From Escherichia coli (GTDB lineage: Bacteria > Pseudomonadota > Gammaproteobacteria > Enterobacterales > Enterobacteriaceae): a stretch of 64,000 bases of DNA. A program made the position numbers and the translations under genes. How positions within the stretch are numbered: position 1 is the stretch's first letter; every line of letters starts with the position of its first letter. This document shows, in pieces, positions 12,107-16,394 of the stretch. The stretch lies in the NCBI RefSeq assembly GCF_003018115.1, contig NZ_CP027457.1; one strand, written 5' to 3'. Below the pieces are notes generated by a model that worked only from the letters and a program-made list of their open reading frames with translations, had not been told where the DNA came from and ran no database searches.

Positions 12107-12439
12107 GTTTTGTAACCTGTTGTTGATTACATCCGATCTCACCGCGTGGGGCATGGATGGGGCAAATTCACTCATTTTCTGGTTTAAAATGGATACCTGA
12201 TCCTGAAAGTTTTCTGCCATCCACGATCTGTATACGCGATAACATGTTTTGTCTTCGCTTTGCTCATAGGAAGAGTGAACTCTTTTGTTAGCCTGGGGTT
12301 CCTTCTGATCATTATTGTTCCTGCCTTTATCTCTTGCCACGCCAGAGCCCCCTGGATACACATACACCAGGATGAAAACGGTGAGTTGTGTTCAAACTGT
12401 AGTACAATTCTCTCCAGTATGAACAGGAAAGAATATGCT

Positions 12440-12772
12440 ATGAACCCTTATATTTATCTTGGTGGCGCAATACTTGCAGAGGTCATTGGTACAACCTTAA
12501 TGAAGTTTTCAGAGGGGTTTACACGGTTATGGCCCTCTGTTGGCACAATTATTTGCTATTGTGCATCATTCTGGTTATTAGCTCAGACACTGGCTTATAT
12601 ACCTACAGGGATTGCTTATGCTATCTGGTCAGGAGTCGGTATCGTTCTGATTAGTTTGCTTTCCTGGGGATTTTTTGGTCAACGACTGGACCTGCCAGCC
12701 ATCATAGGCATGATGTTGATTTGTGCCGGTGTGTTAGTCATTAACTTGTTGTCACGAAGTGCACCGCATTAA
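12440..12772 (+). CDS. emrE: EmrE, small multidrug resistance (SMR) efflux transporter
   Basis: 110-aa product MNPYIYLGGAILAEVIGTTLMKFSEGFTRLWPSVGTIICYCASFWLLAQTLAYIPTGIAYAIWSGVGIVLISLLSWGFFGQRLDLPAIIGMMLICAGVL... is near-identical to recalled K-12 EmrE; ATG 12440 with RBS aggaaag; the 170-aa track ORF is an upstream extension. Confidence 0.9.
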   Translation: MNPYIYLGGAILAEVIGTTLMKFSEGFTRLWPSVGTIICYCASFWLLAQTLAYIPTGIAYAIWSGVGIVLISLLSWGFFGQRLDLPAIIGMMLICAGVLVINLLSRSAPH

Positions 12773-12940
12773 AAAATAATCATCCTTGAGATAACAGGAA
12801 TCTGATTTGTGCATATTATGGCTAATGTTCGGGGCAACTTTATAATTATGATTGCATTTGCGCGATCATTGCGCCTTTTTGCATAATGAGATCAAGGCAC
12901 ATCAAATAAAATAACGATAGGTCACAACAAAGAGGTTTTT

Positions 12941-13492
12941 ATGAAAAAACTTATCGTTTCAAGTGTATTGGCATTCATAACATTTTCTGCGCAGGCCGCA
13001 GCATTTCAGGTCACTAGTAATGAAATAAAAACAGGAGAGCAACTTACAACGTCTCATGTATTTTCTGGATTTGGGTGTGAGGGGGGTAATACATCGCCCT
13101 CATTAACCTGGTCTGGTGCTCCAGAAGGCACCAAAAGCTTTGCCGTAACTGTGTATGATCCAGATGCGCCTACAGGCAGTGGATGGTGGCACTGGACTGT
13201 TGCTAATATTCCAGCAACGGTAACATATTTGCCCGCTGATGCAGGAAGACGTGATGGTACAAAACTTCCGACTGGTGCTGTCCAAGGCCGAAATGATTTT
13301 GGCTATGCGGGATTTGGTGGAGCATGTCCTCCCAAAGGAGATAAACCCCATCATTACCAGTTTAAAATATGGGCTCTAAAAACTGATAAGATTCCTGTGG
13401 ATTCTAATTCCAGCGGAGCGTTAGTTGGTTATATGCTTAATGCCAATAAAATTGCAACCGCTGAGATAACACCCGTTTATGAGGTAAAGTAG
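12941..13492 (+). CDS. ybcL: YbcL-like periplasmic PEBP/RKIP-family protein
   Basis: 183-aa ORF with signal peptide MKKLIVSSVLAFITFSAQAAA and PEBP-like core (DPDAPTGSGWWHW ... HHYQFKIWAL); RBS agagg upstream. Confidence 0.8.
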   Translation: MKKLIVSSVLAFITFSAQAAAFQVTSNEIKTGEQLTTSHVFSGFGCEGGNTSPSLTWSGAPEGTKSFAVTVYDPDAPTGSGWWHWTVANIPATVTYLPADAGRRDGTKLPTGAVQGRNDFGYAGFGGACPPKGDKPHHYQFKIWALKTDKIPVDSNSSGALVGYMLNANKIATAEITPVYEVK

Positions 13493-13501
13493 GATAAGAG
13501 T

Positions 13502-14299
13502 ATGCTGGCAAAAGATAGGACTAACCTAAAGATTGAAGAAATACGGATGCATAAACATCATGAGATTCACAGGGTTAAGCCTCTTATGCCAGCTTTATGT
13601 CGTATCCGTCAGGGAAAAAAAGTTATCAATTGGGAGACGCATAGTCTAACTGTTGATAATAATCAGATAATATTATTTCCCTGTGGATATGAATTTTATA
13701 TTGCGAATTACCCAGAAGCAGGTCTTTATCTTGCAGAAATGCTTTATTATCCCATTGATCTAATTGAAAAGTTCCAAAATCTTTATGCGATAACCGATCA
13801 AATTCGTAACACGACAGGTTTCTGCTTACCTCAGAATCCCGAGTTAATATATTGTTGGGAGCAACTAAAAACATCTATTTCCCGAGGCTTCTCAACGCAA
13901 ATTCAGGAACACTTAGCAATGGGCGTTCTACTTTCATTAGGAGCACATCATGTTAATTGTTTACTTTTATCAGATAGTAAACAATCATTAATAAGTCGTT
14001 GTTATAACCTAATGCTATCCGAACCTGGAACAAAATGGACAGCAAACAAGGTAGCGAGATATCTCTACATTTCTGTTTCCACATTGCATCGCCGTCTGGC
14101 AAGCGAGGGAGTAAGTTTTCAAAGTATATTGGACGACGTGAGGTTAAATAATGCGTTGTCTGCTATACAAACGACAGTAAAACCCATCAGCGAGATTGCC
14201 AGAGAAAGTGGTTACAAGTGTCCTTCTCGTTTTACTGAAAGGTTCCATAATCGTTTTAAGATAACACCAAGAGAGCTAAGAAAAGCGTCCAGAGAGTAA
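13502..14299 (+). CDS. ybcM: AraC/XylS-family transcriptional regulator (YbcM-like)
   Basis: 265-aa ORF with C-terminal AraC-type HTH region ([43 protein letters not shown]...[29 protein letters not shown]); starts 10 nt after the ybcL stop. Confidence 0.75.
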
Positions 14300-14640
14300 A
14301 AGTATTTTATGAAGGAGCAACAGCATCGATTTTTATTTTGGAAAATAAATACGGCATACTCAACCTATTGGAGCCTGAACAATCCGGTGACTTCTGCGCT
14401 AATCGGGGACGTTTATAAGCACATATAATTGATACTATCTTCCTCCATCACAATTTCAGAAATGCACGTGTGATTTTTTTGCATCCGGCGTTTGGACTAT
14501 GTGGAGTTCAAGAGTGGGAAAGTTACAAGAGGTTGAGGGGATAATTAAAGGGATGCTTATGACATTAGATATCCGGTTAGGTACGGATATCGTTGTTATT
14601 AAATCTAATTGATACGTTAATTGTTCACTGAGTATTATTA

Positions 14641-14664
14641 AAAATGGGGCGTTGAAACGCCCCA
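14641..14664 (-). terminator. Rho-independent terminator downstream of the porin gene
   Basis: Hairpin tggggcgt / ttcaa / acgcccca followed on the minus strand by a T-run (plus strand aaaaa at 14640-14644). Confidence 0.6.
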
Positions 14665-14750
14665 GAAAATAAAGGGTAATATATAACAGAAGGTTTATAT
14701 AGTCAGAAGCAAGATAGTGCTTCTAAGGAAAGTGGTTTGAGGGCGCCACT

Positions 14751-14785
14751 TATATGTTGGGGAGGCAAAGCCTCCCACAACATAT
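14751..14785 (-). terminator. Long hairpin immediately 3' of the porin stop codon
   Basis: About 15-bp inverted repeat tatatgttggggaggc / aaa / gcctcccacaacatat with one bulge, 16 nt downstream of the stop at 14801. Confidence 0.5.
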
Positions 14786-14800
14786 CTTTGAGTAATCAGA

Positions 14801-15883
14801 TTAGAACTGGTAAACCAATCCTACAGCAACGATATCATCGGTAGCAACGCCAGATGCTTTCGTGAAATCGCTCTTATCAATCAGGTTGATTTTGTAATCA
14901 ACAAAAGTGGACATATTTTTGTTGAAGTAATAGGTTGCACCTACATCAATATATTCAACCAGGTCCTGATCACCCCACGCACCCAAGTCTTTTCCTTTAG
15001 ATTGCAGGTAAGCAACGGACGGACGCAGACCGAAGTCGAACTGATATTGTGCAACTACTTCAAAGTTTTGTGCTTTGTTGGCAATATGGTTATTACCAAA
15101 AACAGTCATGTTCTGGGTTTCAGAATAGGTGGTAGCCAGATAGATGTTGTTCGCATCATATTTCAGACCAGCTGCCCATACTTCAGCATTTTGACCAGAT
15201 GCATTCAGGCTGTTGTTACCGTAGATAACCTGATCATTAGTGCGGTCAGATTTAGCATAGGTTGCACCTACACCGAATCCTTCATACTCATAAGTAGTGG
15301 AGAAACCGAAACCATCACCGTTAGCTTCAGTTACGTCAGTGCGGTCATTTTTACCCTGATACTGAGCAGCAAAGTTCAGACCATCAACCAGACCAAAGAA
15401 GTCGTTGTTACGATAAGTTGCAACACCTGTGGTGCGACCAGTCATGAACACATCTGTTTGGGTCCAGGTATCGCCACCGAATTCTGGCAGAACGTCGGTC
15501 CATGCACCGATATCGTATGCTACACCGTAGTTACGGCCATAATCGATGGAGCCGTAGTCACCGAATTTCAGGCCAGCGAAGGCAAGACGGGTTTTATCTT
15601 TGGAAGAACCTTGAGATTCAGCACGGTTGCCTTTGAATTCATATTCCCACTGACCGAAACCAGTCAGTTGATCGTTGATTTGAGTTTCGCCTTTGAAGCC
15701 CAGACGAACATAAGTTGTGTCGCCATCATCTGCATCGTTAGAAGAGAAGTAGTGCTTAGCATTAACTTTTCCGTACAGATCCAGCTTGTTACTGTCTTTA
15801 TTGTAAATCTCTGCTGCCTGAGCAGACATCGCCATCAGTACTGATGCAGCTACAGCAGAAATTGCCACTGTTAATTTTTTCAT
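14801..15883 (-). CDS. General diffusion porin of the OmpC/OmpF family (NmpC/OmpD-like)
   Basis: 360-aa ORF with signal peptide [23 protein letters not shown], porin hallmark motifs ([18 protein letters not shown]-terminal VAVGLVYQF) and resemblance to recalled NmpC. Confidence 0.85.
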
Positions 15884-16394
15884 CGTGAGCCCTTTTATTT
15901 GAACTATTATTTAAAAATGATGTCACTGCACCACAAATATTCATCTAATCAATGAGATTATTTCAAGATGTAAGTTTTAGTTTCTCATTTAAATTGTGAA
16001 GTAGATCCCTATTTTTATCTGAACTGTTTCTATTGCACACAATGCATGACTATTTTGTGAACGAATATAAATTTGGTAGTCAAATTATATTAAAGGTTGT
16101 TATTTATGATTGACTCATAATTTATTTTTTTAATTTAAATAGCCTGAAAATAACTATAGAAATTATTTGTATGATATTTGTTTAGATTTATTAATGTAAT
16201 TTAGGTGGTTTTATTTAATACGCAATATAGCGCCGCTTGATATTAGTTCTATTTTTTTGCGTAAGATAGATGAGACAAAACTGAGACGCATAATGGTTTG
16301 CAAGGCTCTAATACTTTGATGTTGAGGATGTGATGGGGCATGTACGGGCATAGTACAATGATGTCCATGCAGGTGTAGATAATCTCCAGGCTTA

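Follow-up and report, generated by a model that had tools for sequence, protein, structure and literature searches.

Positions 12107-16378 of the 64,000-nucleotide (nt) stretch analysed here, referred to as the window and taken from Escherichia coli contig NZ_CP027457.1 (GCF_003018115.1), form an island between fliE and yedK that carries four intact open reading frames (ORFs): emrE, ybcL, ybcM and a porin gene. Coordinates without a locus label are window positions. From left to right, the locus consists of fliE, a left attachment site (attL), two fragments of an integrase gene (int'), the tail of ren, emrE, ybcL, ybcM, the tail of the antiterminator gene Q, the porin gene on the opposite strand, a presumed phage P arm, a right attachment site (attR) and yedK (Table 1). 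In the 4.27 kb between the attachment sites, no ORF other than those of the four cargo genes is intact. Comparison loci carry L labels where these are needed: L004 is the K-12 fliE slot, L005 the DLP12 prophage, L007 phage PhiR34_1, L008 phage IdasGreatGrand, L022 and L025 strain UTAK-1, L024 enteroaggregative E. coli (EAEC) 042, L026 and L027 strain UTI89, and L010, L013 and L017 Citrobacter spp.

Table 1. Features of the fliE-yedK interval in the window
Feature	Position	Strand	Remarks
fliE	11792-12106	+	NCBIfam TIGR00205; same annotation in all homologous loci; last codons form the attachment site
attL core, TGATGAGCATGCAGGTGTAG	12087-12106	+	final 20 nt of fliE, stop codon included
integrase remnant 1	12125-12259	-	residues 387-431 of a 434-amino-acid (aa) lambdoid tyrosine integrase; 3' end faces fliE
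integrase remnant 2	12238-12411	-	residues ~210-277 of the integrase
ren tail (last 9 nt) and emrE upstream region	12364-12439	+	homology to DLP12 and PhiR34_1 starts here
emrE	12440-12772	+	cargo gene; SMR multidrug/quaternary-cation efflux pump
ybcL	12941-13492	+	cargo gene; periplasmic PEBP/Raf-kinase-inhibitor-like protein
ybcM	13502-14299	+	cargo gene; AraC-family regulator
ybcM-downstream segment (ylcH region)	14300-14516	+	reaches the ybcN start codon; nin-region deletion junction at ~14506-14516
antiterminator Q (quuD) remnant	14520-14612	+	last ~30-31 codons and stop
sigma-70-like promoter match, TTGATA-18-TATTAT	14609-14638	+	10/12 positions; best in region
hairpin terminator downstream of the porin gene	14645-14664	-	stem of 8 bp (6 GC), then a T run
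porin, NmpC/OmpD-type general porin, 360 aa	14801-15883	-	cargo gene, intact
porin upstream region	15884-16221	.	homologous to the phage segment between porin and holin gene; very AT-rich
presumed phage P arm	16222-16358	.	starts where PhiR34_1 homology stops; followed by the attR core
attR core, TGATGTCCATGCAGGTGTAG	16359-16378	+	direct repeat of attL; 16 nt away from the yedK stop
yedK	16395-17063	-	right host flank; NCBIfam NF007413; SOS response-associated peptidase in homologous loci

The sequence-only reading, an earlier description of this region made from its letters and ORF translations, had placed these four genes together between fliE and yedK, and both the ORF list and the family matches agree. 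EmrE matches NCBIfam NF042984 over residues 1-110 of 110 (240.5 bits, cut-off 226), which predicts a transport function, and YbcL matches NF007330 over its full length (400.8 bits, equivalog cut-off 277). The porin matches NF007841, of the OmpC subfamily (520.8 bits, cut-off 484), with a full-length barrel and a signal peptide. For YbcM, residues ~153-264 align with the C-terminal helix-turn-helix of several AraC-family models, and no equivalog cut-off is reached. All four proteins also match PHROG families over their full length, including 6899 for YbcM, 410 for the porin and 1395, in the category 'moron', for EmrE. NmpC and EmrE have already been regarded as prophage morons (PMC9928086; PMC2808357).

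The same reading judged the block AT-rich by eye, as the GC comparison confirms: GC content is 40.1% across 12107-16378, compared to 55.5% for the left flank, 51.4% for the right one and 50.1% for the whole window. At 15884-16378 it is 29.5%. No insertion sequence (IS) elements or IS scars were found at the island edges in the window, and Rfam identified no RNA families inside the island.

The island is bounded by direct repeats. The attL and attR cores are equal at 18/20 positions and constitute the longest direct repeat identified by a repeat finder within 11900-16600. Extended by one base, attR (ATGATGTCCATGCAGGTGTAG at 16358-16378) is equal to the attP of phage IdasGreatGrand (L008 6192-6212) at 21/21 positions (BLAST E 8e-6). 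At the other end, window 12087-12242 aligns with the 3' end of the IdasGreatGrand integrase gene and the 37 nt past it (86% across 167 nt), with this phage-arm sequence beginning directly after the attL core; the 21 nt of IdasGreatGrand adjoining the alignment are an exact match to window 16358-16378. With a slash marking the junction, attL reads ...GAAGTGATGAGCATGCAGGTGTAG/GTTTTGTAACCTG..., the IdasGreatGrand attP reads ...CATATGATGTCCATGCAGGTGTAG/GTTTTGTAACCTG... and attR reads ...ACAATGATGTCCATGCAGGTGTAG/ATAATCTCC.... The phage core ATG TCC ATG CAG GTG TAG and the fliE sequence ATG AGC ATG CAG GTG TAG both encode MSMQV followed by a stop; because the phage core differs by a synonymous Ser codon, FliE is unaltered by integration. 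In a comparable arrangement, e14 and phage 21 integrate at the 3' end of icd, where attP copies the last codons of the target and the gene stays intact. The island differs from these in its target, fliE, and in the much shorter duplicated segment (~20 nt).

These repeats, which were recovered in a direct-repeat search of the flanks, contradict the earlier description of the block as 'prophage-free' and replace its proposed extent of 12107-16394 with 12107-16378. K-12 and the window share sequence up to 12243 on the left side and again, on the right side, from 16379, which lies 16 nt short of the yedK stop codon; the 137 nt after the fliE stop codon are the counterpart of the K-12 intG pseudogene. 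At attL and the int 3' end (12107-12190), 11 nt are deleted from the window and the Ser codon is AGC, as in K-12-type strains. In L001, L018 and UTI89 (L027), which have the same island, the phage-like version is kept (TCC codon, 11 nt present). Since its attL and int end are K-12-like while its island is UTI89-type, the window haplotype is a recombinant (mosaic) of two slot types. The common UTI89-type attR carries one substitution in its core.

The absence of integrase and lambdoid genes, likewise asserted in the sequence-only reading, does not hold. In tblastn searches with the IdasGreatGrand and UTAK-1 integrases, two int fragments were detected, remnant 1 with 80% aa identity (E 6e-19) and remnant 2 with 41% identity (E 3e-10). 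Their placement beside attL, 3' end towards it, is that of int in lambda prophages. Nucleotide homology of remnant 2 extends over 12238-12347 (blastn, 75% across 116 bp to L008 5585-5700), and ~344 bp of int are absent between the two. The translated K-12 intG pseudogene also matches lambdoid phage integrases. Its best match is to IdasGreatGrand (78% across 54 aa), at the extreme C-terminus of the 434-aa integrase, the gene for which is preceded by kil, gam, bet, exo and xis. The integrase of PhiR34_1 gave no tblastn match to the island.

A remnant of Q lies exactly where the nin region is absent. Positions 14520-14609 correspond to Q residues 98-127 of 127 (tblastn, 70% identity, E 2e-9), and the translation, GKLQEVEGIIKGMLMTLDIRLGTDIVVIKSN followed by a stop, aligns with the C-terminus of phage Q. 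Sequences across the junction (14502-14612) indicate that the nin-region deletion joins the GTG start codon of ybcN to Q codon ~97. This ybcN-Q fusion leaves a short ORF ending in ...GIIKGMLMTLDIRLGTDIVVIKSN and a stop codon; a pR'-like promoter match comes next. Lambdoid gene order places pR' directly after the Q stop, and the match at 14609-14638 is thus at the site expected for this late promoter, which it may represent; the promoter and terminator scans produced no enrichment above shuffled sequence. Searches for ybcK, ybcN and holin genes in the island recovered no ORF and no significant tblastn match, and those for Ren recovered only chance-level matches (E > 0.4).

By blastn, the island is collinear in three blocks with DLP12 and PhiR34_1, the order and orientation being the same apart from deletions. 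Block 1 (12364-12774; ren tail and emrE) is 92.2% identical to L005 6001-6411 and 92.5% identical to L007 8940-9350. Block 2 (12786-14516; ybcL, ybcM and on to the ybcN start codon) corresponds to L007 11439-13169 with 89% identity, after which the alignment jumps to L007 14942. Block 3 (14516-16221; the last 99 nt of Q, the porin and the region upstream of the porin) corresponds to L007 14942-16649 with 91.8% identity, compared to 85-87% for DLP12. The PhiR34_1 map reads int (reverse), exo, bet, gam, cI, cro, cII, O, P, ren, emrE, ylcJ, ybcK, ybcL, ybcM, ybcN, ninE, ybcO, rusA, ylcG, Q, OmpD (reverse), S, R, Rz and Bor, followed by the head and tail genes.

PhiR34_1 (PV340559), PhiR68_2 and PhiR70_1 are complete lambdoid genomes with all four cargo genes, PhiR34_1 sharing 90.8% nt identity over 90% of the island query. 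Unlike the island, these are full phages of 44.6-49.7 kb with a DLP12-type integrase, ybcK and a nin region. DLP12, also a defective prophage, has ren, emrE, ybcL, ybcM, the nin region, quuD and nmpC (reverse) in the order of the island, and the BLASTN comparison (85-92% nt identity) bears out the statement in the sequence-only reading that it holds the same four genes at another chromosomal site. The two elements differ in several respects. DLP12 is located at argU, next to a tRNA-Arg gene, and has the integrase intD, whereas the island is located at fliE and has another integrase type. In DLP12, ybcK, the nin region and the lysis genes survive, along with a complete Q and some of the late genes, while the island is far more reduced; in addition, the DLP12 nmpC gene is broken by IS5 and the island porin is intact.

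The sequence-only reading had left two histories side by side: the cluster was either the chromosomal source of the phage cargo or a decayed remnant of it. The remnant half of that pair stands; the source half does not. A chromosomal origin, with the block as original E. coli DNA from which DLP12-like phages took their cargo, would suit a block that is widespread in the species with all four genes intact, and also the synonymous divergence (dS) of 0.16-0.38 from the phage copies, which indicates an old split and no recent transfer. We nevertheless consider it very unlikely, as the block lies inside attL and attR, its GC content is 40% where the flanks have 51-56%, and fragments of int and Q together with the end of ren would not be expected in a chromosomal progenitor. 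Phages hold this cargo in two moron slots (ren/nin and Q/S) and the island keeps the split, with the tail of Q in between, the mark of deletion rather than capture. Similarly, because truncated int and Q are in the correct places and orientations, the phage decayed into the block and the block was not the source of the cargo. In the five Citrobacter genomes that matched the locus, moreover, no such genes were detected.

Divergence was computed against the K-12 DLP12 and PhiR34_1 copies. EmrE is 98-99% identical to the phage copies at the aa level (dS 0.38; ratio of nonsynonymous to synonymous divergence [dN/dS] 0.01-0.02), YbcL is 95.6% identical to the DLP12 copy (dS 0.22; dN/dS 0.09), YbcM is 91.3% identical to the DLP12 copy (dS 0.32; dN/dS 0.13) and the porin is 99.2% identical to the 'OmpD' of PhiR34_1 (dS 0.16; dN/dS 0.02). 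The four cargo genes are under purifying selection, with dN/dS values between 0.01 and 0.13. Given this dS range, the island genes are paralogues that separated long ago from those of DLP12 and PhiR34_1, and they do not derive from a recent copying of DLP12. We therefore regard as extremely unlikely a recent intragenomic copying of DLP12 cargo, moved to fliE by ectopic recombination or IS activity: nt identity to DLP12 is just 85-92% (dS 0.2-0.4), the integrase and att type differ from those of intD at tRNA-Arg, and the island boundaries in the window are free of IS elements and scars, even though the gene set and orientation are as in DLP12 and IS200/IS605, IS1, IS2, IS3 and IS5 elements often occur near the island in other strains.

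In K-12, the same slot has a different occupant (L004 6491-8563). In agreement with the sequence-only reading, it contains yedL, yedN and intG. This occupant, with intG annotated as 'cryptic prophage PR-G', shares with the island the slot, attL, the integrase C-terminal stub to 12243 and the right boundary at 16379. Its contents are wholly other: yedL encodes a GNAT acetyltransferase, yedN is a pseudogene for a leucine-rich repeat (LRR) protein and intG is also a pseudogene. A phage origin for the yedL-yedN contents was considered and is unsupported, as blastn found no match to them in 50,697 phage records. The two slot haplotypes, window-type and K-12-type, may both derive from the decay of a single prophage, or may result from two separate integrations.

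An intact prophage of the cognate integrase type occupies the same site in one strain, UTAK-1. IdasGreatGrand (PP925829) and the UTAK-1 prophage belong to the same integrase family as the island remnants and have the same att core overlapping the fliE stop codon; they differ in being intact phages, and in the parts of the records examined they have none of the four cargo genes. A full-length integrase of the fliE type was found in eight genomes. In UTAK-1 (NZ_CP157165.1 ~2160100-2200400), a complete P22-like prophage, with genes from int and xis through the tailspike, has inserted at the stop codon of fliE and forms a tandem with an older remnant of the K-12 type (int stub, intact LRR protein gene and yedK), with hybrid att sites at both prophage junctions. 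The site is therefore still in use. The UTAK-1 LRR gene is the intact form of K-12 yedN. In Enterobacter sp. ENT03, a related integrase is found directly after fliE. The proposal in the sequence-only reading that this position is a recombination hotspot thus holds in the sense that the fliE 3' end is a phage attB with alternative occupants, including the complete prophage of UTAK-1.

Continued site use raises the question of whether the remnant is still mobile, such that the Int and Xis of an IdasGreatGrand/UTAK-1-type phage could excise it, or a phage could capture it via tandem integration and recombination, making it an exchangeable cassette. The 21/21 identity between attR and the phage attP core is in keeping with this, as are the circulation in E. 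coli of cognate-integrase phages that integrate beside such remnants and the mosaic attL region of the window, which indicates exchange at the locus. On balance we think mobility improbable: int, xis, replication and packaging functions are all gone, attL and attR differ at 2/20 positions, the UTI89-type attR core is substituted, the fixed position and 97-99% conservation look like vertical inheritance, and neither a free circular form nor a second chromosomal location was seen. That such a trans-mobilisable cassette carries its four cargo genes back and forth between phages and the chromosome is also improbable and, if anything, slightly more so. If true, it would partly revive the idea that the block is a source of the cargo.

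The fliE-yedK interval was surveyed in 5,426 complete E. coli genomes. Using window 12200-12480 as the island junction query (coverage of at least 80%), the int'-to-emrE junction was identified in 2,619 genomes (48%). The ybcM-Q'-porin junction, a marker of the four-gene form, was identified in 454 (8.4%), among them UTI89, which has the full four-gene island at the fliE site. The rarity implied by the sequence-only reading is not borne out by these frequencies. In a minimal form, present in 544 genomes, fliE and yedK are separated by only a 377-bp integrase stub derived from the K-12 type. Nearly all genomes outside the island-bearing set contain the occupant of K-12 type, which has this integrase stub too. 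An integrase-plus-attP query matched 5,159 genomes; among the matches listed, only the 3'-end stub is present, except for the full-length UTAK-1 gene, and most are under or next to fliE. Across strains the island has a fixed position and 97-99% sequence conservation, and the only other matches to it are DLP12-type prophages. L018, a 5.2-kb contig labelled 'MAG: Lachnospiraceae bacterium', contains fliE', the full island and yedK, with a porin and EmrE 100% identical to those of the window. It is almost certainly E. coli DNA that was mis-binned into a Lachnospiraceae metagenome-assembled genome (MAG).

Most island-bearing strains have no porin. The porin-less forms have a common deletion, 14621-15842, that spares just 41 nt at the start of the porin ORF; such forms (L002, L003 and L028-L030) also have an IS200/IS605 tnpA-tnpB element at the yedK stop codon. 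Another form has the IS element adjoining 14620 and a truncated yedK. Breakpoints in the porin-loss and IS variants are located at 14620, 15843, 16396 and 16626. Several independent porin losses were considered and rejected: the breakpoints 14607, 14610 and 14620 have a common right breakpoint at 15843, so the simplest explanation is one deletion and later IS events. We also considered whether the extra porin of EAEC 042, Ec042-2121, described as 'phylogenetically distinct' (PMC2808357), is the island porin. It is not, as 042 has the K-12-type occupant at fliE and the porin lies between drpB and hchA. This gene (NC_017626.1 2206344-2207459) is at the yedS position, a further locus with variable porin content, ~21 kb away from the fliE slot. 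In UTI89, a porin is also present at the drpB-hchA locus (L026 148-1263).

Taken as a whole, the block is very probably a decayed lambdoid prophage that integrated at the 3' end of fliE and has been reduced to its cargo genes. It has the att repeats matching a phage attP, the int fragments facing attL and the gene order of a defective lambdoid prophage. The repressor, replication, lysis and structural genes of an inducible prophage are absent from it, as are the intact integrase, replication/primase and packaging-hijack genes of a phage satellite such as a phage-inducible chromosomal island (PICI), int being present only as fragments. The island is the same kind of element as DLP12, a cryptic lambdoid remnant, with another attachment site and integrase, and is ordinary in kind. 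We found no description of a fliE attB, or of the island as a prophage remnant, in the literature searched, and its anatomy may be new in this detail.

The history that best fits these features begins with a lambdoid phage that inserted by site-specific recombination, using a tyrosine integrase and the last ~20 nt of fliE as attB. This parental phage would have carried emrE, ybcL and ybcM in the interval from ren to the nin region, with the porin located between Q and the lysis genes. Deletions, in whatever order they occurred, would then have removed most of int, the early region from xis to ren, the nin region as far as Q codon ~97, and the whole stretch from holin through to the P arm; ybcK may have been lost too, or may never have been there. 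These events left attL, int', the four cargo genes, Q' and attR. The lysogenic-conversion genes that survive are self-contained, needing no phage functions, and purifying selection has maintained them as ordinary chromosomal genes. They may be expressed from their own promoters, and YbcM may regulate neighbouring genes.

Several observations do not sit easily with a prophage origin. The P arm has no homologue that we could find in the phage collection (positions 16222-16358 are conserved among other islands of the same type). The K-12-type occupant has no recognisable att core at its right end, which falls at the same base as the window attR. IdasGreatGrand, the phage with the matching int and attP, has none of the four cargo genes in the part of its record examined; we therefore infer a parental phage that combined known modules as a mosaic. 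For the genes in this strain, expression and function are predictions from sequence. Finally, no unoccupied E. coli attB (reconstructed as CATGCAGGTGTAG/ATAATCTCC) was found: an artificial fliE/yedK junction gave only two-piece matches, with the 377-bp integrase stub between them, in the 5,426 E. coli genomes, a gapped empty-site pattern gave nothing in 100,044 species genomes, and the exact empty-junction pattern in metagenomes gave only attR junctions of this island type.

Outside E. coli, five Citrobacter genomes matched the locus. In 3/5 of them fliE and yedF converge across a gap of just ~50-70 nt, and int, cargo genes and yedK went undetected in all five. E. coli yedK, absent in Citrobacter L010, L013 and L017, may itself be an older insertion at the fliE-yedF junction. 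As for other features of the window, the absence of a flanking tRNA gene noted in the sequence-only reading was upheld, with none within 18 kb of the block and the nearest at 34947. This is the start of a cluster of Gly(GCC), Cys(GCA) and Leu(TAA) tRNA genes (34947-35248, + strand) that is ordinary for E. coli. The C0465 small RNA (Rfam, 111.6 bits; 53473-53550, - strand) is likewise an ordinary E. coli feature.

One of the cargo genes has a bearing on pathogenesis, as YbcL has been studied for suppression of neutrophil migration (review PMC4810123). The ybcL gene annotated in UTI89, which we examined at the island site, is the island copy and not the DLP12 copy; the YbcL of the neutrophil-migration work is therefore probably that of this island. 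At residue 99 (codon 13235-13237), YbcL has Ala in the window, Val in K-12 DLP12 and Thr in UTI89-type strains such as L001, the YbcL accession of which is the same as that of UTI89. Assuming a signal peptide of 21 aa, residue 99 of the precursor is residue 78 of the mature protein, which is reported to determine whether the protein suppresses neutrophil migration.

The island explains why many E. coli strains, including uropathogenic UTI89, have emrE, ybcL, ybcM and an extra intact porin without a recognisable prophage. With respect to annotation, the fliE copies of these genes and those of DLP12-type prophages are old paralogues and should stay separate. Almost all E. coli genomes examined have an occupant at the lambdoid attachment site around the fliE stop codon, and phages continue to use it. 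The island provides a clean example of prophage decay in which the lysogenic-conversion genes alone were kept, with the porin lost again in most lineages.

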